From Methanobacteriota archaeon (lineage in GTDB: Archaea > Thermoplasmatota > Thermoplasmata > RBG-16-68-12 > JAFNFQ01), in the NCBI GenBank assembly GCA_017885655.1, contig JAFNFQ010000004.1, positions 89,373-153,372 of the forward strand: a stretch of 64,000 bases of DNA, written 5' to 3'. Each line of letters starts with the position of its first letter. Position 1 is the first letter of the stretch. The position numbers were made by a program, and so were the translations under genes. This document shows, piece after piece, positions 18,943 to 57,946 of this stretch. The notes under the pieces are model-generated. The model was not told the DNA's origin. It was given only the letters and a program-made list of their open reading frames with translations, and ran no database searches.

Positions 18943-19037
18943 CCGTCTTCCCTCGGGCAATCCGTCCTAAACCGATAAATACGCGGTAATGGTTTTAGAC
19001 AGTCAACCTCTGACGCGCACGGGAGGAGTGGGCAGAA

Positions 19038-22000
19038 TTGTTAAAGACAAGCCTCTTGGCTCTGCTAGTGCTGGTGCTTCTGGTCGTACCGTCGGTTCCG
19101 TATGTCCAGGGAACTCATGTTGCGGGTGTTGAAGAATCCGGCCGGGCGATCTCGCTGGATTCAACCGCAGATCAAACGCAGGGCTGGACGCAGACGAGCA
19201 TCGAGGATACGCTGGTCGCGGATGCCGGGAAGCAGTTTGTGGACGTCGTCGTTTTCACAAGCGACGCAGGCGAGCTCGGACGTGCGCTGTCGAGCATGCC
19301 TCACCAGGGGGTCGTCGGCACCGCCAGCGGCGGCGGTTTCAGCACGCCCCGCATCCAGGTCCCCGCGTGGGCACTCGAAAGGATCAAATCGCTTCCATCC
19401 ACCATCGGCGTGTACGACTATAAGTCTCCCGAGAGACAGATAATGGACGATGCAGAAATCATGTCTGGCGAGGGTGTCGTCCCGACCAACATAGATTCTG
19501 TGAACAATCACAAGGCACCTGCCGCCTGGGCGCGGGGCTACAGGGGCGAGGGGACGGAGATCGCGATAGTCGACGACGGGATAGATTTCGCACATCCGGA
19601 TCTCCTGGGGACGGCCGCGAGGTACAACGCCAGCGAGGTCCCTCAGGCCACGCTGAACCAGAAGCCCTGGCTGGGCACTTACGACGGCTGGCCGATCGCC
19701 TACGACCCGACATCGATGTCCGGATGGTTCGCCAAGGGAGGGAAGGCGGAGGGCACTTGGTACGCAAACACGACCTCGACCGATGACACCGTATGGCACA
19801 CCATCAAGGTCGACGGCAAGAACGACTTCTGGACCGACGGTAGCGAGAAGATCGGGAGCGACAGCAACAGCGACATAGTCGAGATCAATGGCACCGAGAC
19901 GAGGCAGGACTACAACCTCATAGACCTCTGGGCCACCCAAGACCAGAACAACTGGTACTTCGCCTTCTCTTCAAAGGCGAACCACTCGACGATGAACTTC
20001 GGGCTCTACATCAACACGACATCGTCGCCGCCATGGACCGCGGGTGCGACGTACGATCCTGTGAACGGCAATCTCATCACGGCCGTTTCGAACCATACCC
20101 CCGAGTTCGCGATCTACATGACCCACAACGGCGGACAGCTGCCGGGACACTACGACAAGAACGACACGATCGACAACGCGACGGTGTGGAAGTGGACCGG
20201 CTCTGCATGGGGATCGCCGGTCAACGTCACCGATTCCCCGATAAACGGGCAGTTCGGTTACGGGAAATACGACTTCAAGAAAGGCGTGGGCTTCGTCGAG
20301 ATCATGATACCGAAGTCCTACCTCGGCAACCCGCCGGGGGTGTCGGTGGAGCTCTTCACAACTGGCACGAATGTCTCGCACGCGCAGGACACGTGCTACG
20401 AGGATCCAAACGTAAACTTCGCCAACCCTGACTGGTCCAGCACGCCCACTCAACTGTCAGCCTTCGTGCAAGTGGAGCGCAGCTTCTGGCATCACACGAG
20501 GAACAAGGTCGGCGACAGGGCGACGCTCTCATGGCCGATACACTACATCACCACCGGCACGAGCAAGAGCGGCTCATATTTCTTCGGGGATCACCCGGAC
20601 AAGAACCTGCCCCAGACCAAGGTACTCGTCGTCGATGAGGCGGCGGCGGGGGTCTACGACACGGTCTACGTCGACCTCGATCACAACAAGGACTTCCATA
20701 ACGACAAGGCGCTGAAGAAGCTCGGCAAGTACGATGCGTCGTTGAACTGGCACCCGGTCGATTGGAACGGCCAGGGGACCGTCTACGACGAGACCTCGTA
20801 CATGGACTTCTACGATCCGGGAGGGGCGGTGAGGACGGTTGCGTACTCGTCCGACGGCAAATGGTTCGTGTCCGGCGGGGAAGACCACCAGGTGGTGCTA
20901 TGGGACACGTCGAACTGGGCGATCAAGTGGTCGACGAACCCGCGCGATGGCCGCCCTGTCTCGTCCGCATTCTCGCCTGACAGCAACAGCGTGGCGGTCG
21001 GGTTCGACGACGCCTCGGGCGGCAGGTACTATGTCGTGATCTGGGACGTGGCGACTGGGACCATCACGCACACGCTCGCCGGTCACGCGGGTAGCGTGAA
21101 CGGTCTCGCCTGGTCGCAGGACGGGACCAAGATTGCATCCGCGTCATCCGACGGCACAGGGAGGATATGGGTCGTTGCCACGGGTTCATACATTGAGCTG
21201 GCAGGACACACCAACGCCGTGACTGGTGTAGCGTGGAGGTGGTCGGACAACATAGTCGCGACCAGTTCTCTGGACGGCACGATACGCCTGTGGGACTCGT
21301 CGGGCACGAGCACCGCAAGGCTCGTCTACGGTCCGCCTCTGTCCGCAGTTGACTTCAACCCGACCGGCACGATCCTTGCGGCCGCATCGTTCGATGGCAA
21401 CGTAACGCTCTGGAACACCGTCACTCGGCTGTTTTCGGCCGCAGCGGCTCATGGAGGCAACGGAGTGCTCAGCGTCAAGTTCAACAGCTCCGGCACCGGG
21501 CTCGTCACTACATCGAACGTGACCGGCGACTTCGACGCGACCGTGGTGACCTGGGACGTCGTTGCATGGGACAACTTCTTCCCGAGGGCCTCGGGGGCGA
21601 GCGCCTGCTACGAGAGCGCCCGGGGATACCGGTCGCCTGCGGGCGCGTTCGCGGCGAATGGCACACAGGTCGCATCGGCCTGCGGCAGCAGCTCGATAAA
21701 GCTGTGGGACAACAACCTAAGGCTTCAGGGCACGCTCAGGGGGCACCGCATAGGAGTCACGGACTACACGATATGGGATGCGGGCGACGGTCTACCTGAC
21801 ATCTCCGGCGGGATGATTTACTTCATCGCGCAGAACTACTATTACACCGCCACCACCAGCTGGGGGACGCCGATTCCGTATTCTGACGCCTACAAGAGCC
21901 GAAATGGCCAGGAGAACCTCTTCATCCCCGTCAACGGCACGCTCGTCGCTTTCATGGGCGAGATGGACCTGGGCAACAAGCACGGGACTCTGATGGCTTC

Positions 22001-25000
22001 CAGTATCGTCGGCAAGGGGGCCTCGAAGTACTATGACTCTACCACGACGATACCTTACCCGATGAAGGAACCGACTGCGCCGCAGGTGGTCGGCATCGCG
22101 CCCGCAGCGAAACTGGTCCCGATAGCTAATGTGTACACAAGCAGCGTCTTCGAAGGGTGGTGGTTCGCCGTCCAGGGATATGACGGCGCGCCGAGTAGCG
22201 GCGACGAGCCGCAGATCGCAGCGAACGGCTTGAGTTTCAGCAGCACCTTCGAGGACGGCTGGGACTTCTACTCGCGGTTCGCCGACTGGATCACCATGGT
22301 CTACGCGAGTGGCAGCGTCGCCTTCACGATGTCGGCGGGAAATGACGGTAATGGCTACGGCACCGTGACATCGCCCGGCTCTGGAGCTGGAGTGATCAGC
22401 GTCGGGGCCAGCACTGACTTCTTCTACCGCAAGGCATCTGGGTTGGAAGGGGGCTCGAGCCAGAGCTACGGTGATGTGGTGCCATTCTCCAGCCGAGGCC
22501 CGACAGCACTTGGAGCGCCCGATCCCCACATGCTCGCGAACGGCCGCATGTCCTACGGCTCGACCCCGCTCAACCTCGTGATTCCATACAACGGACAGAT
22601 AGCGAGCGAGCTCTGGTCTGGGACGAGCTTGTCATCGCCACTGGCGGCGGGCATACTCGCGATGACCGAGCAGGCCTACAAGCAGAAGCACGGCCATTGG
22701 CCCGATGCGGCAACCGCCAAGTCCCTCCTGATGAGCTCGTGCGACGACATCAACTACGACGCCTACTCGCAGGGCGCGGGCTTCCTCAACGCGGACCGCG
22801 CCACGAAGCTGGCGGAGGAGAGCGAGGGATTCTACGTCACTCCCTCTCTCTGGACCCCGGGCAACTACTCCGGACAGAAGTATGAGGCCTTCACATCCCT
22901 CCTCGACCCGGGCTCCTCCGACTCCCAGACATTCACGATAGGTAACCTTCATCAGACGGCCGCGCGGACCGCCAACCTGTCCGCCGAGATATTCCACAGG
23001 TTCTCACAAGTCGACCTCGCGGTGAACACGCTGGCGGACTTCACCGGTGCCGCGATTGACAACTACGTCACTCTGTCGGTGCTCAGTCCGGCCGCGCAGA
23101 CCCTCGGCGGTCCAGGCGCGTACCAGCTCATCCCTCCAACGGTGATGAAGAAGCGCGCGTCGATCAACGTGGCAGACTGGATCAGGGCGGACCTGTTGCG
23201 GGTCACGATATCTGCCAATTTCACCTCGCTGGACGGGGATGGTGACGGCGTCCTTGGCGGGTCGAAGGACTTCACTTACAACATCGACCTGTACGACTGG
23301 ACCTGGGACGGGCTGAACCCGATAATGCCGCACACGGGCAACTTCGCGGACCTCAACAGGATGACAATCAACCATCCAACCGCGAACGTGGTCCAAGCGA
23401 CGATCCGCAACCCCGCGATGAGGACGCACGACGGCCTGTTGATAGGCATCAGGAGGTTCCCGTACGGCGCGAAGGACATCTACTTCCGTATCAGTATCGA
23501 ATTCTTCGAGAAGACGACGTGGTCCCCGTTCCTCACGCTCGACAATAATTCGGTGAACGTCCCTTCGAACTCGAATGCGACATTCACCGCCACCGTGAAC
23601 GTCCCGGCGGACATCCCGATCGGCAGCTACGAGGGATCGATATACGTCAAGGGCAACCCGCAGCACGACATCAAGACGTGGGAGGTCGTGAGGACGAACA
23701 CGAAGTACGCCGCGCTGAACCAGTTCAACATAGTCGGCATCGCGGTCTGGCGGGGGGCGGTCAAGCTCAGGCCGGGCATTGACTATGTCGCCTACAATGA
23801 CACCGGCGTCGTCGAGTTCAAGATTGTCTTGGGGCTGGGGAACATCATGAAGGTGGATTACTGGTACGACCAGGTAGTCACGATCCCTGTCTCTGTCACG
23901 GTGCCCGCTCATGGAGTCATATTCAACTGGTCGGCGGGCCAAGTGCCCGGCCAAGACGAGTTCTACTCGAACGTGATTTCCGCGGGCTTCGGGCTGGGCG
24001 GGCAGTCTGGCGACTGGCGCTTCTACCCGACGTTGCTGCCGCAGGGCGGGCTGTACGACCTATCCAAGACGTTGCGATTCATCGCGAAGGTCAGCTGGGA
24101 TTTGAACAGGACGGACATCGACGTCTTCTCGTTCGGCCCAGGCGGCTCCGTCGTCGCGGTGGGCTCCGACCTGTCCACGCAGAGATACGGGCCGTTCCTC
24201 GTCGGCAGGAACAACGGCGGCAGCACGACTACCGCCCTTGTGTTCACCACGAGCGGGGGGAACATGGAGATAGCATCGCCGGCCTTCGCCGGTGGGCTCA
24301 ACATAATCGCCGTGCACGTCGTGCACATGAACGGTCTGCGCTACAGGGAGAACGTCTCCGGGGAGGTCGGTCTCTTCGGCCTCAACCCGAAGGAACTGAC
24401 CGTGGTCACCAACAAGCTGTACGGGAGCAGGGCGTTCCAGATATTCAGCACGATGAGCTGGCCAGGCATCGGAGCGGTATCAGCTGGCCCGGCGCCGCCA
24501 GAGCGTTATATGAACGAACACATAAAGCAGGACTCGACCGAGGGGACGGACTTCGTCTCGATGCTCTCGAAGGGTTCCTACACCCGCCTCGTCCGTGTCA
24601 AGCCGAGTGCACTCATCTTCAGCGCGAACACATCGAGCGATCAAGGCTACACCGACAAGCCCTGTTCCGACCTCGACCTGGGCGTCTTCCTCGACGGCAA
24701 AGGTCCTGGCAACGTCCCTGACGGCATCGCGCAGCCGGAGGAGTTCGTCGTCTACTCCGCCGGTCAAAGCGCGACGGAGGAAGTGAGGCTCATCAGGCCA
24801 ACCGTCGAGGACGACCCGGACACTCCAAATATCAACGAGATGGAGGTCGGCGCGCCCTACCTGATAAAGGTCCTAGGCTACATCGTCCCTTGGGCTCCTT
24901 ACGGCACGTTCAACGTGGACGTCACCCTCGTGCAGGGCGTGGGCTTCAGTGTCGAGGGTGCGACCAAGCTCCGCGTCGACCCTTACAACATATCGAGGGT

Positions 25001-26636
25001 GTACCTGAACTGGAACCTGCAGGGGAGCACGAAACCTGGCAGGATGCTCGGCGCTCTCTACATCGGTCCCTCGAACGCGCCGCTCATGATACTGGTCCCG
25101 ATAACGCTGGTCATCGACTTCACCGCACCTAAGATTACCAAATTCTCCGTCACTGCGACAGGCGAGAGCCGCGTGGACGCCGCAACGGGCAGGACGACGA
25201 ACGACAGGATGCCGAGTCTCGTCCTCGAGGTGAGGGACGACGACAGGGGCGAGCTGGATCCCGCGAGCGTCAGGACATACATGGACGGGGAGAACGTCAC
25301 AGCCTGGACTTCTGTCTCCTTCGCATTCAGCCCCCACCCGACCAGCGCGGTCCTTGGCCGGTGGAGCGGGAGCATCAGGTATGTGCCGATAAGGCCGCTC
25401 AGCCCGGGGCCCCACTTGTTCAAGGTCTCGGTGGCGGATGTTGCGGGGAACTTCGTCGATAGGGACTACGTCATAGTGATCGACCCCGATGCCCCGCTAA
25501 TAGCCATAGAAGGCCCGCCGGTCCGGTACACGAACGTCTCTGATGCGGAGATCCGCGGGACCACGGAGCCGGGCGCGACAGTCGTCATGGGGAACACCTC
25601 AGTAGTGGCCGATCAGGACGGGGCTTTCTCCTTCAATGTGCGCCTCACTCCAGGGATCAACGAGTACTCCGTGAGGGCGACCGACTGGTTCGCAGCAGGC
25701 ACGGGAGGAACGCAGGTCAGCGGCAATTACGCCGATGCCGCTGTCAGGATAATCTACGACACCGTACCGCCGGAGCTGCAGGCGGCGATCTCGCCATCCC
25801 TGGTCACGAGTGGCGAGGCCGTCATGGTCTGGGGACAGGTGAGCGACAGCGCCTCGACGATCGAACTGGACCCGACCACGGTGAGGGTGACCGTGAACGG
25901 AAACGACATCCACGTCAGCGCGGACGGGAAGTTCACGGTGTGGGTCACGCTGTTGCTCGAAGGCGACAACAGGATCACGGTCGCCGCGACGGACCTTGCG
26001 GGCAACACCGCCAGCCAGGAAATCACGGTCGTGAGGGACACCGAGCCACCGTCCCTAATCCTCGACGACATGCCGAGCGTCGTGACCGAGAGCAAGGTCA
26101 CGGTCTCCGGGAGGACTTCGCCAGGAGTGAGGGCGAAGGTGAACGGGTTCGAGGCTCCCGTGAACCCTGACGGGACCTTCTCGAAGCAGGTGCAGCTCAG
26201 CTACGGCATGAACTGCATCGTGGTCAGGGTGACCGACGACGCCGACAACGTCAACGAGATGAAGGTCGGGGTGTACTACGCCTCCAGCTTTGCGCCGGAA
26301 TCGGGGGCGCCAGGCGGCTACCTCAACATGTCCCCGGGGGTGTGGGCGGCGATTGCCGTGGTCATCGGTCTGGTGATTGGCTTGGTTCTCTCCATTCTCT
26401 TCAAGCCGAAGGGTGGAACGAAGGGCGAACCCGAGGAGGGCGAGGCCGGGGAAGCAGAGGCCGAAGAGAAGCCGAAGGAGGAAGAGGCTCCGAAGAAAGA
26501 GGTTCCACCTGAGACCGAGCCCATGAAGCCCGCAGAGGACAAGAGGGAGGCTGCGCTGCGCAAGGCCCTCGAGGACGGGAAGATAAGCAAGGAGATCTAC
26601 GAGAAGAACCTGGCCCGCATCAAGGGGAAGGCGTAG
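19038..26636 (+). CDS. Giant (2532 aa) membrane-anchored surface protein: subtilisin-like (S8) peptidase triad with an inserted WD40 beta-propeller, multiple beta-sandwich domains, C-terminal TM helix and acidic/Lys tail
   Basis: TTG start with GGGAGGAG upstream; signal peptide MLKTSLLALLVLVLLVVPSVPYVQG. Asp motif AIVDDGIDFAHPDL, His motif HGTLMASSIVG about 800 aa later, Ser motif SGTSLSSPLAAG. WD repeats (VVLWDTS, VIWDVATG, RIWVVATG, IRLWDSSG, VTLWNTV, VVTWDV, IKLWDNN) lie between the Asp and His motifs. C-terminus VWAAIAVVIGLVIGLVLSILF followed by an E/K-rich tail. Confidence 0.85.
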   Translation: MLKTSLLALLVLVLLVVPSVPYVQGTHVAGVEESGRAISLDSTADQTQGWTQTSIEDTLVADAGKQFVDVVVFTSDAGELGRALSSMPHQGVVGTASGGGFSTPRIQVPAWALERIKSLPSTIGVYDYKSPERQIMDDAEIMSGEGVVPTNIDSVNNHKAPAAWARGYRGEGTEIAIVDDGIDFAHPDLLGTAARYNASEVPQATLNQKPWLGTYDGWPIAYDPTSMSGWFAKGGKAEGTWYANTTSTDDTVWHTIKVDGKNDFWTDGSEKIGSDSNSDIVEINGTETRQDYNLIDLWATQDQNNWYFAFSSKANHSTMNFGLYINTTSSPPWTAGATYDPVNGNLITAVSNHTPEFAIYMTHNGGQLPGHYDKNDTIDNATVWKWTGSAWGSPVNVTDSPINGQFGYGKYDFKKGVGFVEIMIPKSYLGNPPGVSVELFTTGTNVSHAQDTCYEDPNVNFANPDWSSTPTQLSAFVQVERSFWHHTRNKVGDRATLSWPIHYITTGTSKSGSYFFGDHPDKNLPQTKVLVVDEAAAGVYDTVYVDLDHNKDFHNDKALKKLGKYDASLNWHPVDWNGQGTVYDETSYMDFYDPGGAVRTVAYSSDGKWFVSGGEDHQVVLWDTSNWAIKWSTNPRDGRPVSSAFSPDSNSVAVGFDDASGGRYYVVIWDVATGTITHTLAGHAGSVNGLAWSQDGTKIASASSDGTGRIWVVATGSYIELAGHTNAVTGVAWRWSDNIVATSSLDGTIRLWDSSGTSTARLVYGPPLSAVDFNPTGTILAAASFDGNVTLWNTVTRLFSAAAAHGGNGVLSVKFNSSGTGLVTTSNVTGDFDATVVTWDVVAWDNFFPRASGASACYESARGYRSPAGAFAANGTQVASACGSSSIKLWDNNLRLQGTLRGHRIGVTDYTIWDAGDGLPDISGGMIYFIAQNYYYTATTSWGTPIPYSDAYKSRNGQENLFIPVNGTLVAFMGEMDLGNKHGTLMASSIVGKGASKYYDSTTTIPYPMKEPTAPQVVGIAPAAKLVPIANVYTSSVFEGWWFAVQGYDGAPSSGDEPQIAANGLSFSSTFEDGWDFYSRFADWITMVYASGSVAFTMSAGNDGNGYGTVTSPGSGAGVISVGASTDFFYRKASGLEGGSSQSYGDVVPFSSRGPTALGAPDPHMLANGRMSYGSTPLNLVIPYNGQIASELWSGTSLSSPLAAGILAMTEQAYKQKHGHWPDAATAKSLLMSSCDDINYDAYSQGAGFLNADRATKLAEESEGFYVTPSLWTPGNYSGQKYEAFTSLLDPGSSDSQTFTIGNLHQTAARTANLSAEIFHRFSQVDLAVNTLADFTGAAIDNYVTLSVLSPAAQTLGGPGAYQLIPPTVMKKRASINVADWIRADLLRVTISANFTSLDGDGDGVLGGSKDFTYNIDLYDWTWDGLNPIMPHTGNFADLNRMTINHPTANVVQATIRNPAMRTHDGLLIGIRRFPYGAKDIYFRISIEFFEKTTWSPFLTLDNNSVNVPSNSNATFTATVNVPADIPIGSYEGSIYVKGNPQHDIKTWEVVRTNTKYAALNQFNIVGIAVWRGAVKLRPGIDYVAYNDTGVVEFKIVLGLGNIMKVDYWYDQVVTIPVSVTVPAHGVIFNWSAGQVPGQDEFYSNVISAGFGLGGQSGDWRFYPTLLPQGGLYDLSKTLRFIAKVSWDLNRTDIDVFSFGPGGSVVAVGSDLSTQRYGPFLVGRNNGGSTTTALVFTTSGGNMEIASPAFAGGLNIIAVHVVHMNGLRYRENVSGEVGLFGLNPKELTVVTNKLYGSRAFQIFSTMSWPGIGAVSAGPAPPERYMNEHIKQDSTEGTDFVSMLSKGSYTRLVRVKPSALIFSANTSSDQGYTDKPCSDLDLGVFLDGKGPGNVPDGIAQPEEFVVYSAGQSATEEVRLIRPTVEDDPDTPNINEMEVGAPYLIKVLGYIVPWAPYGTFNVDVTLVQGVGFSVEGATKLRVDPYNISRVYLNWNLQGSTKPGRMLGALYIGPSNAPLMILVPITLVIDFTAPKITKFSVTATGESRVDAATGRTTNDRMPSLVLEVRDDDRGELDPASVRTYMDGENVTAWTSVSFAFSPHPTSAVLGRWSGSIRYVPIRPLSPGPHLFKVSVADVAGNFVDRDYVIVIDPDAPLIAIEGPPVRYTNVSDAEIRGTTEPGATVVMGNTSVVADQDGAFSFNVRLTPGINEYSVRATDWFAAGTGGTQVSGNYADAAVRIIYDTVPPELQAAISPSLVTSGEAVMVWGQVSDSASTIELDPTTVRVTVNGNDIHVSADGKFTVWVTLLLEGDNRITVAATDLAGNTASQEITVVRDTEPPSLILDDMPSVVTESKVTVSGRTSPGVRAKVNGFEAPVNPDGTFSKQVQLSYGMNCIVVRVTDDADNVNEMKVGVYYASSFAPESGAPGGYLNMSPGVWAAIAVVIGLVIGLVLSILFKPKGGTKGEPEEGEAGEAEAEEKPKEEEAPKKEVPPETEPMKPAEDKREAALRKALEDGKISKEIYEKNLARIKGKA

Positions 26637-26678: not shown

Positions 26679-26750
26679 GGGCCGATAGATCAGTGGAAGA
26701 TCGCCGCCTTCGCAAGGCGGAAGCCGTGGGTTCAAATCCCACTCGGTCCA
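26679..26750 (+). tRNA. tRNA-Ala (anticodon CGC), no encoded CCA
   Basis: Cloverleaf folds by hand: acceptor GGGCCGA/TCGGTCC with a G3:U70 pair (Ala identity element), D-stem GATC/GATC, anticodon stem CCGCC/GGCGG with loop TTCGCAA, T-arm GTGGG-TTCAAAT-CCCAC. Confidence 0.85.
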
Positions 26751-26905
26751 CTTTCAATGAGTGCGCATGGAGTTCAGTACGCATCGCAGGGAATCATGCT
26801 GGGCTTTATCCAGAGGGATTATTGTCATAGTCCTCATCGAAAGAATCAATACGCGAATCATGAAGGTTCCTAGATTGACAGAACGGCATCGAACCCTGGC
26901 TATGC

Positions 26906-28363
26906 CTATACTTCTAGCGCGTCGATCCTATTGCCCGCGATTCGAACAACGAATGTGAGCAGTAGCGCCGAGAGATCTGCCATGAGAATCGCAACGAGTA
27001 CTCCCAGAACCCTGTCGTTCATGAAAACGAGCGGCGCTGGTGCGAAGACCACCACGCAGGCTATCAGGCCGAGGATGAAGACAGCATACATCGTGAAAGA
27101 GTCAGGAAGACCGCCAGTGTTCCTGTCGAAGCTTGGCGATCTGGCCCCGAAATAGAGCCCCACAGCGATCATTAGGAAACTCACGACCAGCGCCCCGAAC
27201 GCCAGCATGACGGTAACCGCCCATGGGAGTCCCGCCATCAATGACAGCGGCAAAGTAACAGCCACTACAGCTGGCACGACGATCAGGTAGGCCGACACCT
27301 TGCCGACCGCCACGGCATGTCCATTCACTGGAGCCGTGCGGACGATCCAAATGGAATCGAATTCCCCGCCAATGGAGGAGAGCCCCTTTGAGGTGAGGAC
27401 GAGCGCCGCACCTATGTAGGCTCCCGCCATCGCGAGCGCAGGAAGGGTGAATCTCGCGAGAGGGCCCGCAGGCGGACCGCCAAGGAATAAGTCGACTGAC
27501 GCCAGAGCGACTGTCAGCAGGATGAGTGTGGCGATCGAGATGGTGATCTCCCGGCGCCTCCACGCGGTCTTGATCTCCTTGTCGAAAAGGGCGGCCTCGG
27601 GTTCTGTCATCCATGGGAGCCTGAACGCCCTCGAGCTCCTCAGGCCCGACTTGCCCGGGGATGAGGTTTGGACATTCCAGGCCTCAGCCAACCATTCGGA
27701 TGTCCCGAAAGCCGAAGCCATTGTTGGCGGAACTACAGCCAGGAGGAATGCGAACATATTGCCCAAGGGAGGTTCGTTCTGTACTAGGACGAGCCAAGCG
27801 ATTGCGGGAACTACCGCCAGCGACGCCAAGCCCGTTATCTTCTTTCTCCATGTCGACAGCGAGGCCGCCACTGAGAAGGCGAACCCCGAGGCGAGTCCTC
27901 CGATCGCCGCAAGGACAAGGGACGGGATGAACAGGCCGGTGGCGGGGATTTGCATGTGCAGCCCCGCTATCATGGCGGTCGCGCTGCCAAGTGCGAGGGC
28001 CACGAAAGCCAAGTTGAACGAGAACACCGTGGCCAGTTTGGCTGCCACGATCGAGCGGCGGGAGAGCGGCTGTTGGAGCAAGAAGACCAGAGAAGGGTTG
28101 CGCACCATCCTGTTGTAGCCGTCTATCGCCCCCTTCCCGAGGGCGATCATGAACGCCGCGAAGAGAAGGGAGCCCGGCGTGATCGGCATGGCAATCGGAG
28201 CGTTTGATGTGTTTACCAGCTCGACTATTCTGAGAATCAGCCAGATGCTCCCGAGGAACTGGAGGATCGACAGAGGGAACGAGATCTTGTGCTTGCTGTA
28301 GCGCGCGGTGGAGAAGCGCATCGACTGCACTACATCCGCAGCGTGGATTGAGAACGCGCTCAT
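26906..28363 (-). CDS. ABC-2-type transporter permease (large, probably duplicated/fused, about 12 TM segments)
   Basis: Hydrophobic multi-pass protein translationally coupled (ATGA overlap) to the upstream ABC ATPase. Confidence 0.7.
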   Translation of the reverse strand: MSAFSIHAADVVQSMRFSTARYSKHKISFPLSILQFLGSIWLILRIVELVNTSNAPIAMPITPGSLLFAAFMIALGKGAIDGYNRMVRNPSLVFLLQQPLSRRSIVAAKLATVFSFNLAFVALALGSATAMIAGLHMQIPATGLFIPSLVLAAIGGLASGFAFSVAASLSTWRKKITGLASLAVVPAIAWLVLVQNEPPLGNMFAFLLAVVPPTMASAFGTSEWLAEAWNVQTSSPGKSGLRSSRAFRLPWMTEPEAALFDKEIKTAWRRREITISIATLILLTVALASVDLFLGGPPAGPLARFTLPALAMAGAYIGAALVLTSKGLSSIGGEFDSIWIVRTAPVNGHAVAVGKVSAYLIVVPAVVAVTLPLSLMAGLPWAVTVMLAFGALVVSFLMIAVGLYFGARSPSFDRNTGGLPDSFTMYAVFILGLIACVVVFAPAPLVFMNDRVLGVLVAILMADLSALLLTFVVRIAGNRIDALEV

Positions 28364-29085
28364 GAGTCTCCCACTATCGCGGTGAACGCGTCCTCCAGGG
28401 TAGATGCCCCCGACTTCGCGCAGACCTCCTTGACGGACCCGAGCGCCACGAGGCCTCCGTCGTGTATTATCGCGATTCTATCGCAGATCGCCTCCGCCAC
28501 CTGAGTCACGTGCGTGCTCAGGAGGATGGTGTTTCCTGCCCGGGCATATTCCTTGAGCCATTCCTTGAGCACCTTGGCGAACCTGGGGTCGAGGCCGTTG
28601 GTGGGCTCGTCCAGGATGAGCACCGGTGGCCTGTGGAAAAGAGCGCTCGACACTGCGAGCTTCTGCTTCATCCCCCTGGACAGCCCATCCGACTCGCGTT
28701 CGAGCTCCGCGCCCATGCGGAACAGCTCCCTCATCTCGGATATCCCCCTGTCGGCATCGGCCTGCTTCATGTTTCGCAGCCGGGCGATCATGTTCAGGAA
28801 CTCGCGGCCTGTGAGCTTGTCGTAGAGAGATGGATTCTCGGGAACGAAGCCGATCAACCGTCTTGCCCGGAGCGGATCTCGGACTACGTCGGCATTGCCG
28901 ACGACGGCCACCCCGGAATCCGGGCGGAGGAGAGTGGCGAATATCTTCATCAGGGTGGTCTTGCCCGCCCCGTTCGAGCCCAGCAGGCCGAAGACCTCTC
29001 CTCTGGACAGCTCGAGGCTGACACGGTTGAGGGCAATGATGTCCCCATAGCGCTTGGTCACGTCCCTGGCGGCTAGCATGAGCAT
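28360..29085 (-). CDS. ABC transporter ATP-binding protein
   Basis: Walker A GSNGAGKTT, ABC signature LSRGMKQK, Walker B LILDEPT, H-loop STH. Confidence 0.9.
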   Translation of the reverse strand: MLMLAARDVTKRYGDIIALNRVSLELSRGEVFGLLGSNGAGKTTLMKIFATLLRPDSGVAVVGNADVVRDPLRARRLIGFVPENPSLYDKLTGREFLNMIARLRNMKQADADRGISEMRELFRMGAELERESDGLSRGMKQKLAVSSALFHRPPVLILDEPTNGLDPRFAKVLKEWLKEYARAGNTILLSTHVTQVAEAICDRIAIIHDGGLVALGSVKEVCAKSGASTLEDAFTAIVGDS

Positions 29086-29160
29086 CCAAAGAAGGCGGAA
29101 CGGCTTAAGGATTGACCTATCGCCGGTCAGTGGACGACAGGAAGCGCCGATACATTTCGC

Positions 29161-29739
29161 CTAAATTCGCGTGATCGAAGCGATGTATGCCATAGGAAGA
29201 TGGCCGTTGAAACTCGCCTCGAACCTCGTCTCTCTGATGTAGTTGATCCTCCATCCTCCGCCGAAAGTCTGGCGGATCTCGGCCTGGGTTATCCTCCTCG
29301 GTCCGCCGCCATCAGGCTCTTTGTCGCTGAAACAGAGCATGAAATAGGTCCCGCCGGGCCTCAGCACCCTTGCCAGGCCTCTGGCAAAAACCTCTCGCTC
29401 TTCATCAGAAAGGACGTGGAAAAGACCCGAGTCTATTACCGAATCGAACTTTCGGCCTATGGAGGGGAGATCGAGCGCGCCGTGGACGAGGAACTTGGCA
29501 TTTAGCCGTCGGTCTTTCGCCTTCAGTCTCGCTTTCTCTATGGCAAGTGGGGCCGAGTCGATCCCCCAGACCTCGTGCCCCTCCGCCGCGAGGAACAGGG
29601 AGTTCTCGCCGGTCCCGCAGCCAACGTCCAGAACTGCGCCTCGAATCTCGCCTGACTGCGCCAGTCTTACTATCTCACCTTGAGGGTGGCCTATGTCCCA
29701 GGGCGGCGTGCCCCGGTAGGCCTCGTTGAACCAGCCCAT
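29161..29739 (-). CDS. Class I SAM-dependent methyltransferase (192 aa)
   Basis: VLDVGCGTGE motif I. ATG at 29739 lies 11 nt downstream of the DUF1059 stop. The 238-aa track ORF is a GTG-initiated extension that overlaps the DUF1059 gene in another frame. Confidence 0.8.
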   Translation of the reverse strand: MGWFNEAYRGTPPWDIGHPQGEIVRLAQSGEIRGAVLDVGCGTGENSLFLAAEGHEVWGIDSAPLAIEKARLKAKDRRLNAKFLVHGALDLPSIGRKFDSVIDSGLFHVLSDEEREVFARGLARVLRPGGTYFMLCFSDKEPDGGGPRRITQAEIRQTFGGGWRINYIRETRFEASFNGHLPMAYIASITRI

Positions 29740-29750
29740 GGCTTCTCTTT

Positions 29751-29915
29751 CTAGGCCGGCTCGATCTTGCCCCTCATCTCGACTGGGGTCGACCTCATGT
29801 TGTGGATGTTCGACACGTGGCTCAGCGCGAGATTCACTATCTCGTTCTCGTCGTGGCTTCTCACCATGAATCCGCACTCAGGTTCGCATTCAATCTTCTT
29901 CAGATTTGCTGCCAT
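29751..29915 (-). CDS. DUF1059-like small metal-binding protein (54 aa)
   Basis: Translation MAANLKKIECEPECGFMVRSHDENEIVNLALSHVSNIHNMRSTPVEMRGKIEPA with the C-x-C ... H ... H pattern of DUF1059. TATA box upstream. Under 60 aa, so not in the track; the plus-strand ORF 29767-29949 is the antisense artefact. Confidence 0.65.
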   Translation of the reverse strand: MAANLKKIECEPECGFMVRSHDENEIVNLALSHVSNIHNMRSTPVEMRGKIEPA

Positions 29916-29957
29916 GTTATTTGCCCCGGTTTATCTTGTTCTTGTTTAGGCTGCCCG

Positions 29958-29967
29958 AATATATAAA
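29958..29967 (-). promoter_or_regulatory. TATA box (AATATATAAA) for the DUF1059-methyltransferase operon
   Basis: AT-rich box about 43 nt upstream of the DUF1059 ATG in an otherwise GC-rich intergenic region. Confidence 0.45.
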
Positions 29968-30010
29968 CGGTTGCTAATTCCCCGGGAGGACCCTGCCCTG
30001 GTACAATCCC

Positions 30011-32359
30011 TCAAGGCTCCTTCAGACGCCCGAAGCGGCCCAGTTGGCCTTGTTCTTTCCTGAGTTGTTCCTTGTATATCCAGAAAAGAACCAGAAGGCA
30101 CCCGACCGCCAGGGCGACTGTGATCACCCCGCACGCGCTCACGAGGTATAGGCCCGACTCCTCCACGGTGTCTGCCTGGTTGTTGACGAAGCGATTGTTG
30201 TCGAGGACCATGTGGCTCGCGCTGTCGTACCTTATGGCGTAGTTGCTGTTGTGCTGGAAGTAGTTGGAGCGGATTATGGGGCTTGAGGTCCGCACGACGA
30301 CGCCGTGGAGGTTGTCGATGAAGGAGTTGTCCTCGATGAGTGCGTCCGAGCCTTCCGCGACTATCATCGCATAGTTGCAGTTCTCTATCCTGTTGCCGAC
30401 GATGCGCGCCTTGGCGCCGTGCATCTCGATCCCGTCGTCACCCGCGTCGGAAATGGTCGAGTTGGCGATGGTCGGATTCGAGTTCATGATCAGGATTCCG
30501 TTGAGCCTGGCGTTGGGGAACCTCGTCGCGTTGATGATGACGTCGCTGGAATAGATCTCGAGACCGCCATTATAGTTCTCCTGCTTCGGGTCCGCCCAGA
30601 TTCCGGAGATCAGGCTGTTGTCGATCACCGCGGACCCCATGATTTCAAACGTGTAGGCGAAATCGGGGCTCGAGCTCAGCACCTTGGAGTCGGCGCTGAT
30701 GAAGAGCGTCCCGCCATCGGCCACCCATATGCCGAATTCCTTGTCGGAAGTGAGGTTCATGATCAGCGACGTGTTGACGAGCTGGAGGATCTGGCCCGCG
30801 TCGACGAGAATCCAATCGTTCACGTTGATCGTGGCGTTCACATAGGTGCCCGGCGCGAGGCTGCTTGAGGCCGGCTTCGGCTCGATGTAAATCGCCGACT
30901 GCGGGGCGGCGGGAGCGGAGACGGCCATCTCCAGCCCTATGCTGACGAAGAAGAAGGCGAGCGCCACCGCAATGATGGCCGCGGGGACCTTGATGTTCAG
31001 CTTTCTTGGCACAATCTTCTGCATCTTCGTCATCCTGAACGTCATGTAGGTGACCGCGAGCATGACGAAGATCGGCATGACAAGCCCGAGACCGGATAGC
31101 ACGAGGGAGATCGGCTGACCCGAGAACGTGTACAGGATGAACAGTGCGCTGATGAAGGCTGCAAGAGCGGTGGCGGTCGCGTAGAGCCCGTACTCTATCT
31201 TCCTCGAGGAGACGGCCTCCTCGGGCGACACCTCGCCCTTCACGATGAACTCCTCCCGCCCGAGCTTCGCCCGTATGGTGTCTAGCATCTCCGGGAAACC
31301 TCGCATCCTCTTCCTGATCGCGATGCTCTGCCTCGGATTGGCGGTCCTGAAGATGTAGACCTGGCCGTCTATGAAATTGCTCATCTCCGTGATGTCGCGC
31401 AACTCGCCGAATGAGTAGAAGAAAGTCCGCCCGCCAAACGGCGCGGTCGCCTCGATCCCGTTTTCATAGATTCTGACAGGTTTCAGTCTCCGGCTCATGA
31501 AAATGAGCACGATGCCGACGGCGGCAAGCATCGGGCCGAAAACGAAGAACATCATCAGCAGGAAGAAGAAAAGCGTCGGGAGCACCATGGCGAGGAGCGC
31601 GACCCCTATGCCCGCGATCGCGATGCCGACGCCGATGAGCAAAGCCCCGCCTCTGATGAAAGCCTCCGCCCTCTCGCCGATGTCCTCTTGGCTCTCTTCG
31701 AGGAGCAGCTTGCCCTTACCTTCCACCGCGGGCTTTGGCGGTGGCATCCCGAACGGTCTCATCTCGGCCGATCGCGGGGTTCCCGGACCCCGCATGCTCT
31801 TGTGGATGAGGAGGTCGCCCTCCATGAAGTTGCCCCAGAGAGTCTCGTTCTCGCGGTAGGTCTGGTACCATCGCGGCCCCATCGCCTGCTTGAGGATCGG
31901 GATCAGCTTTTCGAAGTCGTGCGCTCTCGAGCTGACGAGGAGCGCCATGGAGCTCTCCGTCTCTATCTGCAGAGCCTTGAACGATGCGGGGCCGGTCCAG
32001 ATCGAGTCGGTCTTCGTGAAGGGGTTCTCTATCTTCACTGGGTAGATGTCGGATATCTCCGACCAGGGCACGAAGATGTACTTTCCTTTCTTGCCCACGC
32101 TGAACTTGGCGTAGATGCCGTTCTGGTAGATCGCAATGCCTTCATGCGAGACGAGCTTGCGCTTGTACAGAGGAGATCCCTGAGGTCTCGCCTGAGGGTT
32201 CATCGCCCTGTATCTCCTGTTGGCCTCCTTCAGGGCCTTGACCTGCGTCTTGTCGAGTTTGACCCAGCTGTGGACCACCTTGCCGTAGCGCTTGATTCCG
32301 TACCAGAGCGCCAGGGGAATGCCGAAGGCGACTGCAAAGATCGCGATATCCTCTATCAC
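30011..32359 (-). CDS. Membrane protein with extracytoplasmic right-handed parallel beta-helix (NosD/pectate-lyase-like) repeats and a C-terminal TM anchor
   Basis: Several TM helices in the N-terminal half, then repeats (NSNPTIANSTISDAGDDGIEMHG, RIVGNRIENCNYAMIV, IEDNSFIDNLHGVVV, IRSNYFQHNSNYAIRY), then a final TM helix. Confidence 0.75.
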   Translation of the reverse strand: MIEDIAIFAVAFGIPLALWYGIKRYGKVVHSWVKLDKTQVKALKEANRRYRAMNPQARPQGSPLYKRKLVSHEGIAIYQNGIYAKFSVGKKGKYIFVPWSEISDIYPVKIENPFTKTDSIWTGPASFKALQIETESSMALLVSSRAHDFEKLIPILKQAMGPRWYQTYRENETLWGNFMEGDLLIHKSMRGPGTPRSAEMRPFGMPPPKPAVEGKGKLLLEESQEDIGERAEAFIRGGALLIGVGIAIAGIGVALLAMVLPTLFFFLLMMFFVFGPMLAAVGIVLIFMSRRLKPVRIYENGIEATAPFGGRTFFYSFGELRDITEMSNFIDGQVYIFRTANPRQSIAIRKRMRGFPEMLDTIRAKLGREEFIVKGEVSPEEAVSSRKIEYGLYATATALAAFISALFILYTFSGQPISLVLSGLGLVMPIFVMLAVTYMTFRMTKMQKIVPRKLNIKVPAAIIAVALAFFFVSIGLEMAVSAPAAPQSAIYIEPKPASSSLAPGTYVNATINVNDWILVDAGQILQLVNTSLIMNLTSDKEFGIWVADGGTLFISADSKVLSSSPDFAYTFEIMGSAVIDNSLISGIWADPKQENYNGGLEIYSSDVIINATRFPNARLNGILIMNSNPTIANSTISDAGDDGIEMHGAKARIVGNRIENCNYAMIVAEGSDALIEDNSFIDNLHGVVVRTSSPIIRSNYFQHNSNYAIRYDSASHMVLDNNRFVNNQADTVEESGLYLVSACGVITVALAVGCLLVLFWIYKEQLRKEQGQLGRFGRLKEP

Positions 32360-32912: not shown

Positions 32913-33104
32913 TTAGTAGCCAGGGACGGCCCAGTTGACGTCGCTGCTGACGCGGATCATATAGGCGTAGCCAGTCATCAGGTGCGTCGATGTTCCAGCC
33001 CCCGCATTCGGCACAGTGCCGAGATACGCGAACGGGCTGGTCACGACAAGGCCAATCAGGAGAAGGGCCATGCCTGCTCTTCCGAATCCGATTTCATTTT
33101 TCAT
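32913..33104 (-). CDS. Small hydrophobic protein (63 aa) translationally coupled to the InlB-repeat surface protein
   Basis: ATG overlaps the upstream TGA (ATGA) and is preceded by AGGAGGAAGGAAA. Product MKNEIGFGRAGMALLLIGLVVTSPFAYLGTVPNAG... has one TM segment. Confidence 0.5.
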   Translation of the reverse strand: MKNEIGFGRAGMALLLIGLVVTSPFAYLGTVPNAGAGTSTHLMTGYAYMIRVSSDVNWAVPGY

Positions 33105-35713
33105 TTTCCTTCCTCCTGCGATCCGAGCTCTCTCGATGATCCTTCCCCGCCACGAGGATTGGTCGGAGGCACGATTTTCTTGTCCGCTCTCCCGGCCTTC
33201 CGACCCGACTCCTCTTCCCTTGCTCGCTTGCGGTGCAAATAGAACAGCAGAAGCGCGGTGAGGATCACCGCCAATAGGATTGCCGCGATGACGACCAACG
33301 CTGTCGGGAATGGAGAGGGCTGTTGTGAAGGCGTCTGTTCGACCCAGGTCGCAGTCACGGCTTTTGGCGAGTCCATGAGTACTGCCACGTGGAGATCCCT
33401 GCCGCTCGCGTCCCCGGTCCATCCGTTGAAGTCCCAGACCGTGCCGTAGGAATCCGTGAAGGTGGAGTTGACAGTCAATGAGGCGACCGATTGATTGTTG
33501 TACCAGCCCTCGCCCGCAGGCTCCTCGCATTCAGCGCTCCCGCCGCAGTCCGACGACACCGTCAGCCGGAACTGCACTGCCCAGTTGGCGGTGACCGTCA
33601 GGGGCGTGTCCATTGTCACGGTCACCTGATCGTCCGTGCCGCTCGCGCCGCCCGACCATTCGGTGAATATGCAGCGCGTGCCGCCGTTCACGCTGACAGT
33701 CTCGGAAATGGCGACGGTGGCCTCCGACCCCTCGTCGTACCAGCCCGCTCCGGTCGGCGAGCCGCAGTTGGTGATCGAGGAGCACTCCGATACTATGGTC
33801 AGGAGGAACTGGGGTTCCCACGCCGCTGAAACTTCCTTGGCCGCGTTCATCGTCAGCACCAGAGGGTTCGAGGTGCCGGAGGCGTCCATCCCCCAGCCGA
33901 TGAACTTCTGCCTGGTGTCGGTGCTGATGACGAAAGGATCCTCCAATGTCACAGACGCGGTTGTTCCGTTCAGATACCAGCAATCCGCATTCGAGCACTG
34001 GGGATTCCCATAAAGGGAAAGCACCGTCAAATGGAAGAAGATCGTCCATTCGGCGACCGCCGTCATCGGAGCAATCATCAACAGTTGGGCAGACGTGTCG
34101 GTTCCGCTTGCGTCGCCGGACCACTGCACGAACTCATAGCGGCCGCCGTTACCGTCCAGCCACGGCGAAGTCACCTGCGCCGTCGCGGGCTCGGATAGGT
34201 CGTACCAGCAGTCTGTGCGTTCGACGCAGCGGATGTCTCCGATTATCGGAGGGGATAGTGTGAGTTTCACCTGCATGCGACCGTAGAATGCAATATAGTC
34301 CTCCGGTGCGGCGATGAGGACTCGGCGTTGCGACAAGAAGACTCCATCCGACCATTGAGTGAAGGCGTACCTGACCAGAACGAGTTCGTAATTCAGAACC
34401 GTCAGGTTGAGCCAGTGCATCGACTGGTTCTCCCACCATAAGGACGTCAGGCCGTTACAGTTCACGTCGTCGACGCTGAAGTCGATGTTCGTTGGACTGG
34501 TATCGACCCTCACAAGGAAATCGAGATAGCACACGGCCGTCTCTGTGATACTGCCAAGAATCGTGATCGTCGCGTTCGGGTCGGGGCCCGTGTAGTTCCC
34601 GGGTCCATCGCCAATCCACATCTCGAAGCGGTACCGCGTTCGCGGCGGGAGAACTGTCGGCGGAACCCACATCAATTGCACGTCCGTCCCCATGTCTACC
34701 CAAATGGTGATTGGCGGATCGCCCGTGCATATAAACTGCAAGGTGAGCAGGCATTCGGCGTTGAATATCACGATGTACGTCGCCGGACCCGTCACAGGGC
34801 CGATGGGTCGAATCTGGCTGAGGTAGCCATCCGACCACTGCATGAATGTGAATCTGCAATCGTCGAACCGCTGTGGCGAGTTTATGATTAGACTCGGAGA
34901 GGAGTTCTCATCCGCCCAGCAGTGGACTGGGGTGGTCATCGGCACGTCGCATCCGGGTATGTCGCTCCCTATCAAGAGAGGTTCAGGGACGTTCGACTGG
35001 ATCGTTATCAGATACTGTTTGATGAAGCTGGCCACGAATGTCTGAGACCCGTTGATGGTCACGTTCCAGCCCCATGTAGTGGGTCCCCCGATCCACCGGT
35101 CGAACCGATACCGCGTGTCCACCGGGTTCGACGGCTGTGGCGAAACGGTGTACAGCATGTGCGCCGAGCCGTTCTGGAGGACAAGATTCGTCGGAGCAAT
35201 CTGCAGCGGACTCGAGTCGATGCCGACCATCAACCCGGTCGGGATCGTGTCAATCGTGATTGTGACATCCTGATCAAGTGTCGGGTCGGTCCCCGAATTC
35301 GGACGCTCTTCCTGAATCGCGCTCCTAGAACGGCTTATTGCCGCGTTAGTCGAATCAGTCTGACCTGCACCGACCTGATCGGTCGCTCCGCTCGATTCAG
35401 TCTGCTCCTTCACGTCGCCCTGGGTGCCCGCGTTCAGCTCGAGCTGCGTGTCGTCCGGGACTGGGCCGCCCTTCTCCTGAATCTGCGCTTCCGGCAGAAC
35501 CATTGTGACACCGCCCGGGTCAGCCGCCATGGGGGACCCCATGTCCAGCTGTATTTCAGGCGGTGGAATCGTTGTGAGCCCGGACGAGTCCGGGCGTACT
35601 GCGTCCGCTCCCGTGTCCGGCCTGGCGCCGAGCACCGGAGCAAGACAGGAGAAGAGGGCCACAACGACAAGAAGCAGAGCGCTAGCTCTACAGAGTCTAA
35701 GCTCTTGTAACAT
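33101..35713 (-). CDS. Secreted, C-terminally membrane-anchored protein with about eight InlB-B-repeat-like modules
   Basis: ATG at 35713 with GGAGGAGG 7 nt upstream; signal peptide MLQELRLCRASALLLVVVALFSCLAPVLGA. Repeated F.(Q/E)WSGDASGTD / RYRF..W.GG motifs, C-terminal TM helix and basic tail. The track start 35761 is TTG. Confidence 0.65.
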   Translation of the reverse strand: MLQELRLCRASALLLVVVALFSCLAPVLGARPDTGADAVRPDSSGLTTIPPPEIQLDMGSPMAADPGGVTMVLPEAQIQEKGGPVPDDTQLELNAGTQGDVKEQTESSGATDQVGAGQTDSTNAAISRSRSAIQEERPNSGTDPTLDQDVTITIDTIPTGLMVGIDSSPLQIAPTNLVLQNGSAHMLYTVSPQPSNPVDTRYRFDRWIGGPTTWGWNVTINGSQTFVASFIKQYLITIQSNVPEPLLIGSDIPGCDVPMTTPVHCWADENSSPSLIINSPQRFDDCRFTFMQWSDGYLSQIRPIGPVTGPATYIVIFNAECLLTLQFICTGDPPITIWVDMGTDVQLMWVPPTVLPPRTRYRFEMWIGDGPGNYTGPDPNATITILGSITETAVCYLDFLVRVDTSPTNIDFSVDDVNCNGLTSLWWENQSMHWLNLTVLNYELVLVRYAFTQWSDGVFLSQRRVLIAAPEDYIAFYGRMQVKLTLSPPIIGDIRCVERTDCWYDLSEPATAQVTSPWLDGNGGRYEFVQWSGDASGTDTSAQLLMIAPMTAVAEWTIFFHLTVLSLYGNPQCSNADCWYLNGTTASVTLEDPFVISTDTRQKFIGWGMDASGTSNPLVLTMNAAKEVSAAWEPQFLLTIVSECSSITNCGSPTGAGWYDEGSEATVAISETVSVNGGTRCIFTEWSGGASGTDDQVTVTMDTPLTVTANWAVQFRLTVSSDCGGSAECEEPAGEGWYNNQSVASLTVNSTFTDSYGTVWDFNGWTGDASGRDLHVAVLMDSPKAVTATWVEQTPSQQPSPFPTALVVIAAILLAVILTALLLFYLHRKRAREEESGRKAGRADKKIVPPTNPRGGEGSSRELGSQEEGK

Positions 35714-35928
35714 CGTCGTGCCTCCTCCAATCGAAGCCCTATCAGGGGCATCGAAAGTCAAAGCGATATCCGACTATTTAATAACAAATGTCGAGGAGGT
35801 GCGATTGAACGCGGATGCCGACGACATGGGGAATTCCCGCCATTTTCGGAGCGCTGTCGTCCTATCATGTCGCGATGCTACAGCGACACCGATAGGCCTT
35901 TGAGCCGCCGCGCACTTTCTCCCTGCGC

Positions 35929-38811: not shown

Positions 38812-38943
38812 GAGCTGCCGGGGCGGCGCGGTCTGAGCGTCCTTCATTGTCCCTACTTCAAGGAATCAGACAAGGCATCTGCATCAAGATTCCGTCATCG
38901 CCGGAATCGCATGGTTTAACATCCGCGGGGAGTTCCCACGGAC

Positions 38944-48861: not shown

Positions 48862-48879
48862 AATCAAAAATGCATTGAG

Positions 48880-57901: not shown

Positions 57902-57946
57902 CTAGATTGTCAGGTATTGCAGACACCTATAGCGGTTCTCTTTTAT

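Follow-up and report, generated by a model that had tools for sequence, protein, structure and literature searches.

A predicted membrane-anchored subtilase from an uncultured Thermoplasmata archaeon with a WD40 propeller and a CBM-like domain nested in its catalytic domain

We studied a gene for a giant predicted surface protease in a 64,000-nt stretch of archaeal DNA, called the window in the following (contig JAFNFQ010000004.1, positions 89,373 to 153,372 of the forward strand, assembly GCA_017885655.1; all coordinates below are window positions). The gene (19038-26636) is predicted to encode a membrane-anchored subtilase of 2,532 residues from an uncultured Thermoplasmata archaeon; a public protein of equal length (P0001) is 97% identical. 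Its catalytic domain is interrupted between the catalytic Asp and His by two nested domains, i.e., a WD40 propeller and a beta-sandwich resembling carbohydrate-binding modules (CBM). An initial annotation of this DNA had already described a giant surface subtilase of this length starting at a TTG with a Shine-Dalgarno sequence; our re-reading of the open reading frame (ORF), the predicted ectodomain topology and the intact triad agree with the former, and the positions of TTG and GGAGG with the latter. Translation from the TTG gives an N-terminus that resembles a typical signal peptide. The features of the locus are as follows, all on the plus strand.

19022..19026, GGAGG Shine-Dalgarno-like motif, 11 nt 5' of the TTG (direct reading)
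19038..26636, complete gene of 2,532 codons followed by a TAG stop, begins with TTG, a single uninterrupted 7.6-kb frame
19038..19112, signal peptide by prediction (aa 1-25, MLKTSLLALLVLVLLVVPSVPYVQG) with putative cleavage, ranks second in the protein by hydropathy window
19113..19427, N-terminal region (aa 26-130), no Pfam match, fold without assignment, least conserved part within the clade (29% mean identity)
19428..19784, subtilase block 1 (aa 131-249) with the codon of the catalytic Asp179 at 19572-19574, from the alignment to furin and subtilisin BPN' and a splice test
19785..20552, insert A (aa 250-505), CBM74/CBM9-like beta-sandwich by predicted fold, many N-glycosylation sequons
20553..20813, core segment of the Asp-His spacer (aa 506-592, motif VLVVDEAAAGVYDTVYVDLDHNKDF), found in short-form homologs (P0030-36 and others)
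20814..21773, insert B (aa 593-912), WD40 beta-propeller with all seven blades, from Pfam, phmmer, AlphaFold and Foldseek
21774..22847, subtilase block 2 (aa 913-1270) with the codons of His982 (21981-21983), oxyanion Asn1102 (22341-22343) and Ser1197 (22626-22628), Pfam S8 match at 979-1247
22848..25127, region behind the catalytic domain (aa 1271-2030), beta-rich by composition and homolog matches, with a PPC-like stretch (DLDLGVFLDG...)
25128..26327, four Ig-like domains of Glucodextran_B / Big_13 type (aa 2031-2430) that make up the putative stalk, from Pfam
26340..26402, single C-terminal transmembrane helix (aa 2435-2455), top hydropathy window (Kyte-Doolittle mean 2.98 over 19 residues)
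26403..26633, predicted cytoplasmic tail (aa 2456-2532), Glu/Lys/Pro-rich linker and SHOCT-like end, from composition
26532..26624, SHOCT-like terminal motif (aa ~2499-2529), conserved in relatives

An A/T-rich ATAAATA (18975-18981), located 57-63 nt 5' of the TTG, could be an archaeal TATA box. At this position it would give a leader of about 30 nt that contains the GGAGG.

The catalytic motifs appear in canonical contexts and in the order Asp-His-Ser (IAIVD179DG, H982GT, SAGN1102DG, GTS1197LSSP). The distances between Asp179 and His982 and between His982 and Ser1197, previously given as roughly 800 and 220 residues, measure 803 and 215. In the intact protein, the Pfam profile Peptidase_S8 (PF00082) matches residues 979-1247 with its positions 53-287 only (82.9 bits vs. 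a cut-off of 21.8). The isolated Asp block, which is too short to score alone, yields no significant Pfam match; it aligns with the solved-structure sequences of furin and subtilisin BPN' (residues 8-57). When residues 130-200 and 976-1290 are joined in silico, i.e., when 201-975 are removed, a single S8 match results that spans profile positions 1-287 of 288 (98.6 bits). Since this match runs from end to end after splicing, the Asp block is part of the same subtilase domain. That is, at the level of sequence profiles we find one subtilase fold that is split by about 775 residues (about 201-975) in the loop that leads up to the catalytic His. Membership in family S8 follows from the whole-domain match above threshold together with the triad and the oxyanion Asn. 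The doubt attached to the initial annotation, namely that the catalytic residues might not align on a profile search, is thereby settled for both the Asp block and the His/Ser half, and the residues are conserved in relatives. Separate Pfam scans of segments 1-199, 245-510, 1280-1520, 1500-1720 and 1700-2030 gave nothing significant. The N-terminal region (aa 26-130) is possibly a propeptide.

These observations also bear on whether the S8 motifs are relics without an active site. An Asp-His gap of this length is extreme, and related clades are pseudo-enzymes by sequence (see below). Against this, the Asp, His, Asn and Ser are canonical and clade-conserved, the S8 profile is complete after splicing, and domain insertions with adjacent termini, as in a closed propeller, spare the fold. 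We consider a pseudo-protease highly improbable for the protein studied here.

Mapping segments of the query onto 194 family proteins located two extra blocks in the spacer. The Asp-His spacer is hence composed of a shared spacer core and two nested globular domains (inserts A and B). Insert-free relatives (P0030-P0036 and many others) already carry an Asp-His spacer of about 200 aa with the motifs WPIAYD, WY.DTS.TD, G.HPD, VLVVD..AGVYDTVYVDLD and DG..D.SGGM.Y. Judged from these sequences, the inserts entered a pre-existing spacer of about 200 aa and not a compact subtilisin. The two boundaries of insert B ('...YMDFYDPGG' and 'DGLPDISGGMIYF') directly adjoin each other in the short forms.

Insert B is identified by several means. 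Pfam reports WD40 (PF00400) in 4 stretches with 103.3 bits (cut-off 27), and a phmmer search of the PDB matches 2ymu (E 4.9e-71). In the AlphaFold model, residues 598-901 form 28 strands, which make up 7 blades with 4 strands each (pLDDT mostly > 90), and a Foldseek search with this predicted model gives a TM-score of 0.91 to the 7-bladed propeller 7bie. The propeller of at least seven repeat units between Asp and His that had been read from the sequence before is thus recovered. What changes is the number of nested domains: the initial annotation named the propeller, and insert A (about 250-505) is a second one in the same spacer. A closed propeller with neighbouring N- and C-termini suits nesting, since such an insertion leaves the host fold intact. 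Within the query clade, the propellers are orthologous (27-97% identity over full length).

Given the metagenomic source and the repetitive nature of WD40 units, one may suspect a misassembled or miscalled fusion of separate subtilase and WD40 genes. We give this practically no credence: the 7.6-kb frame is uninterrupted, the architecture is collinear in more than 20 independent assemblies of different projects, including a closed 1.99-Mb chromosome, and collinearity across the gene also holds in a relative whose DNA is 96% identical. At the DNA level, the window shares 96% identity with a contig from 'Thermoplasmata archaeon isolate OBJ1_062018_150_24'.

Insert A shows no sequence relatives in Pfam (16 members scanned singly) or in the PDB (16-member profile). 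A homolog search with the insert-A profile was uninformative, i.e., it returned one 291-aa protein and missed known family members. Modelled alone by AlphaFold, insert A is all-beta (pLDDT 80.9, pTM 0.85), and its identification comes from fold search only. The large domain of Sas6 is CBM74, which binds starch and comes closest to CBM9 in fold, and both CBM74 and CBM9 are glycan-binding modules (10.1101/2022.11.20.514607). With CBM74 (Ruminococcus bromii Sas6) and CBM9, insert A shares the beta-sandwich fold at 14-17% identity, although the context is an amylase there and a protease here. From the predicted model, insert A is best described as a CBM74/CBM9-like beta-sandwich, for which we infer glycan binding from the fold alone.

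About 1,260 aa follow the catalytic domain. The first ~760 of these (1271-2030) have no direct Pfam match. At equivalent positions, relatives show NPCBM_assoc/Fn3-like and PPC matches; the PPC profile (PF04151) does not match the query itself and matches relatives P0094 and P0118 at the homologous position. Using the His/Ser block plus residues 1271-2030 as query against 1.84 billion representatives, we obtained 1,087 relatives with E <= 1e-3, 280 of them at E <= 1e-30. Judged by these searches, residues 1271-2030 are family-specific. The subsequent stalk is supported by Glucodextran_B (PF09136; 110.6 bits, 3 stretches) and PF19077 (38.8 bits), and a fourth, weak unit, the first in order, matches Big_13 with E = 5.5e-4. 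The multiple beta-sandwich modules announced by the initial annotation behind the catalytic part include these four Ig-like domains (three strong, one weak; 2031-2430), and its C-terminal transmembrane anchor with an acidic, Lys-containing tail is found as well: only two segments of the protein are strongly hydrophobic (residues 5-23 and 2437-2455), and the 77-aa tail comprises 19 Glu and 15 Lys and ends with 'EDKREAALRKALEDGKISKEIYEKNLARIKG'.

The extreme C-terminus carries the motif 'EDPRIxKLKxAYEEGKISKELYEKNL' in all insert-bearing clades (~30 relatives), even in those that lost catalytic residues. Profile matches of the tail are weak and recurrent. Among 20 homologous tails, 8 match DUF1707 (best E 0.003), 6 SHOCT (0.013) and 12 GvpG (0.0029); the query tail has no such match.

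Sequons (N-X-S/T) amount to 30 in the ectodomain (1.25 per 100 aa), with densities of 3.1 in insert A and 1.25 in the WD40 domain. For comparison within the same window, cytosolic proteins have 0-0.5 per 100 aa and another predicted surface protein has 1.24. The enrichment, which includes the WD40 domain, supports an exposure of the propeller outside the cell. Taken with the two hydrophobic segments, the predicted topology is compatible with an ectodomain on a C-terminal anchor.

This topology also bears on a very different idea, i.e., that the protein is a cytoplasmic protease of a conflict or immune type with a WD40 sensor, as in gasdermin or NLR-like systems. Pairs of protease and WD40 are known from such systems (10.1101/2021.06.07.447441), and there are weak matches to the PADLOC models 'subtilase' and IetS as well as to the NCBIfam model IteS (E 0.025). 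However, these are generic S8 similarities far below the respective cut-offs (IteS 12.8 bits vs. 900; PADLOC 42.7 bits with a partial profile and 15.8 bits). Further, signal peptide, transmembrane anchor, sequons and Ig-like stalk indicate an ectodomain, the WD40 domain is nested and not in tandem, and no NTPase or effector genes are neighbours. The known tandem protease-WD40 conflict systems combine the same pair of domain families (10.1101/2021.06.07.447441) but are cytoplasmic and often bear an NTPase, whereas the query is nested, extracellular by prediction and without such neighbours. We regard this explanation as extremely improbable. Membership in a defence system was likewise rejected, since the similarity to the PADLOC and IteS models is partial and confined to generic S8 features.

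Full-length homologs share 41-97% identity and come from bins labelled Thermoplasmata, Methanomassiliicoccales or Methanobacteriota. Their public annotation reads 'S8 family serine peptidase' or 'WD40 repeat protein' only. The layout of the query with intact triad is common to about 24 sequence clusters from Thermoplasmata-type bins. The architecture, which had been called unusual, is indeed so; it is not unique, given these clusters and sister clades that carry other inserts and often lost catalytic residues.

In a genome scan that took one genome for each species, long matches with inserts (3.2-4.4 kb) are found only in archaea labelled Thermoplasmata, Methanomassiliicoccales or Methanobacteriota. 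Short, insert-free matches (~1.5-1.9 kb) occur in Poseidoniales, Thalassarchaeaceae, Chloroflexota, Anaerolineae and others. Both forms coexist in some genomes (L010/L019 in CP070767.1, L001/L012, L006/L024). The presence of a giant and a short-form paralog in single genomes suggests a division of labour.

To relate insertions and catalytic residues, we annotated a neighbour-joining tree of the His/Ser block (no support values) with the insertion state and the residues at the catalytic positions. The groups are as follows.

Query clade, 24 representatives: insert A and WD40 at site B; H/N/S intact
Neighbouring clade: insert A and an unrelated ~330-aa block at site B; H/N/S lost (QDA, KSA, ...)
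Another clade: inserts of 600-1,300 aa at site A, e.g., Fn3 arrays; H/N/S lost
Another clade: WD40 inside insert A in most members, i.e., a triple nesting; His retained, Asp/Glu mostly in place of Asn and Ser
Short forms: no inserts; H/N/S intact in almost all

The proteins with WD40 inside insert A are P0024-P0028, P0056, P0080, P0085, P0155 and P0165; the residues given refer to members other than P0155 and P0165, which were checked for the nesting. By their residues, the members of this sister clade are probably pseudo-subtilases or use a non-canonical chemistry. Their propellers are no closer to that of the query than unrelated bacterial WD40 proteins are, which fits separate acquisitions or an ancient divergence. 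Further modules occupy the same two sites in other relatives (P0057, P0059-P0061, P0063-P0066, P0069, P0072, P0074, P0088, P0106, P0160), i.e., Fn3 arrays, the ~330-aa block with repeats ending in 'Y.Y(D/N)', and 'SLALDSNG.PHISYYD' repeats; many of the carriers are without any catalytic residues. Across these sequences, the loop between Asp and His acts as a hot spot for insertions in the family.

Within the query clade, the picture is different for the active site: Asp, His, Asn and Ser are kept in P0001-P0023 as well as in the 24 clade representatives, and the Asp in all complete clade sequences. The best conserved segment is the spacer core (aa 506-592, poorly modelled by AlphaFold) with a mean identity of 68%, followed by the catalytic block with 59.5%, the PPC-like region with 55% and insert A with 52%. 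Fastest are the Ig stalk (37.5%), the WD40 domain (36%) and the N-terminal region (29%). The strict retention of the four residues over 41-97% identity, together with a catalytic block that is better conserved than WD40 domain and Ig stalk, points to selection on catalysis.

We weighed two roles of the protein. Probably, it is an active, surface-anchored, pyrolysin-type (S8A) subtilase, and its nested modules would serve to bind ligand or substrate next to the active site. In the respective mechanism, the N-terminal signal peptide would export the protein and the C-terminal helix would hold it in the membrane (type I), with the four Ig-like domains as a stalk that raises the catalytic head above the membrane. 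The nested modules would emerge from the loop adjoining His and the S2 subsite; since they branch next to His982 and this subsite, they are likely located beside the substrate cleft. There, they could act as ligand-capture or gating modules, where the CBM-like domain would capture glycans and the propeller peptides or proteins. In doing so, they would deliver or restrict (glyco)protein substrates, and extracellular proteolysis would feed peptide uptake. The SHOCT-like cytoplasmic end would probably serve oligomerisation or contact to a cytoplasmic partner.

Alternatively, the protein may mainly be a structural or adhesive part of the envelope, e.g., an S-layer-like coat or an adhesin between cells or between cell and particle. 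Here, the subtilase fold would display the binding modules, and proteolysis would be self-maturation or marginal. In sister clades, the giant architecture has persisted together with nested modules and tail motif despite lost residues (HDD, QDA, FLA and others at H/N/S), the inserted modules differ by clade (WD40 at two sites, Fn3 arrays, 330-aa units), and Ig-like stalk, transmembrane anchor and heavy sequon load would fit such a role. The location of the gene amid housekeeping genes and the short-form paralog in many related genomes can be read in the same direction. On the other side stand the strictly kept catalytic residues of the query clade and the conservation ranking given above, so that we hold a mainly adhesive role for possible, if doubtful.

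Several observations weigh against an active protease with substrate-directed modules. Sister clades with a similar scaffold lost Ser, Asn or His; the scaffold is thus useful without catalysis, which favours a main role in binding or structure. Pfam finds no I9-type propeptide in the protein. The WD40 domain is among the fastest-evolving modules, which could reflect diversifying ligands or weak constraint. The fold of insert A also occurs in proteins that are not CBMs (cytochrome domains, ethylbenzene dehydrogenase gamma subunit). Finally, the model of the head (residues 105-1290) has a pTM of 0.45 and a disordered spacer core, a Foldseek search with it gave WD40 matches only, and the placement of propeller and CBM-like domain relative to the cleft is deduced from topology only.

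We also considered a broader scenario, which is unlikely as a whole. In it, the subtilase fold would be an insertion platform in Thermoplasmatota, where the loop before His takes up whole binding domains (WD40 at two points, CBM74-like, Fn3 arrays, others) to form giant envelope proteins. In the query clade, propeller and CBM-like domain would make up a two-part gate or receptor over the active site of a ligand-selective, glycoprotein-directed protease that is possibly also a main coat or adhesion protein; the sister clades would be pure receptors or adhesins. If true, this would be the first extracellular archaeal canonical WD40 propeller within the active-site architecture of an enzyme.

Returning to the probable active surface protease, we compared it with known systems. 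Pyrolysin and similar subtilases have large insertions and/or a long C-terminal extension (PMC12838322). The pyrolysin group is defined in PMC9549277 and is heterogeneous; KP-43-type proteases belong to its subgroup of oxidatively stable proteases (PMC9549277). With members such as pyrolysin of Pyrococcus furiosus, stetterlysin, KP-43-type proteases and site-1 protease, the query shares the S8A core, large insertions, the long C-terminal extension, the archaeal origin and, by prediction, the association with the envelope. The respective traits of the query are the 775-aa insertion and the ~1,260 aa after the catalytic domain. Among the solved sequences nearest to the core are KP-43-type proteases (1wmd, 5fax), TPPII and site-1 protease, with Tk-SP (3afg) also ranking high. 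By insertions, extension and some of these nearest sequences, the query fits the pyrolysin group. None of the described members, however, has a WD40 propeller or a CBM74-like domain in the catalytic domain, and the Asp-His distance of the query is about 800 aa.

TPPII (MEROPS S08.090) shares the giant chain and a large insert between Asp and His, which comprises about 200 aa there, and its core is similar to that of the family (3lxu, E 2.8e-4 to 1.8e-16). We searched the PDB with the Asp-His spacer alone of P0050, a distant family member from Thermococcus; 3lxu was not found, and the best matches (E 0.65) are unrelated proteins. TPPII is matched only through the His/Ser core. TPPII is also a cytosolic, homo-oligomeric exopeptidase without nested propeller or CBM, whereas the query has a signal-like segment and a transmembrane helix. 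As the spacer does not detect TPPII and the location differs, the query is not classed as TPPII. The respective candidate assignment was rejected on unsupported spacer homology and on a signal-like N-terminus with C-terminal transmembrane helix in place of a cytosolic, signal-less protein.

A functional precedent is STABLE, an S-layer-bound protease of Staphylothermus marinus that yields peptides for energy metabolism (PMC9549277). It is likewise an archaeal surface subtilase of the pyrolysin group, held above the membrane by tetrabrachion and thought to supply peptides (PMC9549277). By analogy, STABLE may serve as a precedent for a nutritional archaeal surface subtilase. It differs in being a separate polypeptide on a stalk protein, whereas stalk, anchor and protease of the query are in one chain that also bears nested binding domains.

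Looser likenesses exist to two further groups of peptidases. In PA-domain subtilases (plant SBTs, streptococcal C5a peptidase, lactocepin), a globular domain is nested in the fold and modulates substrate access. The PA domain is a single domain of ~120 aa between His and Ser, whereas the inserts of the query, propeller and CBM-like, lie between Asp and His. C5a peptidase and chemokine protease C are among the PDB matches of the Asp block. Prolyl oligopeptidase (S9) is a serine peptidase in which a 7-bladed beta-propeller gates the active site. Its peptidase part has an alpha/beta hydrolase fold and its propeller is neither of WD40 type nor placed in a subtilase, such that it can offer an analogy only for the propeller of the query.

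In a literature search of non-exhaustive coverage, we found no paper on a subtilase with a nested (exported) WD40 domain. By architecture, the query is a predicted surface subtilase of pyrolysin type that holds two nested, putatively binding domains, and the sequences are already public under generic names. A 320-residue propeller and a 256-residue module nested in the catalytic domain of a protease are rare; they provide a natural example of an enzyme fold that tolerates huge insertions near its active site, which is of relevance to protein engineering. In a systematic survey from 2017, WD40 proteins were found in only 27/134 complete archaeal proteomes (PMC5587647). Prokaryotic WD40 proteins are tied mainly to kinases and signalling. 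An exported, sequon-bearing WD40 domain would broaden the known uses of the fold. Further, the graded series, which leads from short active forms through active forms with inserts to insert-bearing forms that lack catalytic residues (activity judged from sequence), could show a route from enzyme to surface scaffold. By size, these proteins rank with the largest predicted for the envelope of uncultured Thermoplasmata-type archaea, and they may bear on how these organisms achieve the capture and degradation of detrital (glyco)proteins.

Regarding the genomic context, housekeeping genes surround the solitary subtilase gene in three genomes, and neither an operon partner nor a conserved partner gene is present. 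Upstream in the window are genes for a pyruvate phosphate dikinase-like protein, a thymidylate kinase-like protein and a P-loop ATPase (named from their translations by eye). Two distant genomes show other housekeeping neighbours, namely CysRS, S6e, aIF2-gamma and Pelota.

A tRNA-Ala(CGC) gene is located at 26679-26751, i.e., 43 nt past the stop codon of the subtilase. The adjacent region 26754-30005 (~3.25 kb) is missing from the 96%-identical relative L007, where the alignment jumps from 26753 to 30006; it looks like an indel beside the tRNA gene. Its minus-strand ORFs were named by eye as ABC-2 permease (26906-28363), ABC ATPase (28360-29085) and methyltransferase (29161-29877).

Two further minus-strand ORFs are predicted to encode large envelope proteins and proved unrelated to the subtilase when compared. 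The first (33101-35761, 886 aa) has an N-terminal hydrophobic segment, repeated units of ~90 aa, a C-terminal hydrophobic segment with a charged tail, and a sequon density of 1.24 per 100 aa. The second (30011-32359, 782 aa) is a multi-pass protein with 0.77 sequons per 100 aa. Finally, the GC content rises to 0.66-0.685 at 36001-40000, overlapping a 960-aa ORF (35929-38811), and drops to 0.51-0.55 at 48001-64000, compared to 0.57-0.63 elsewhere in the window. These shifts may mark islands or a different gene class.

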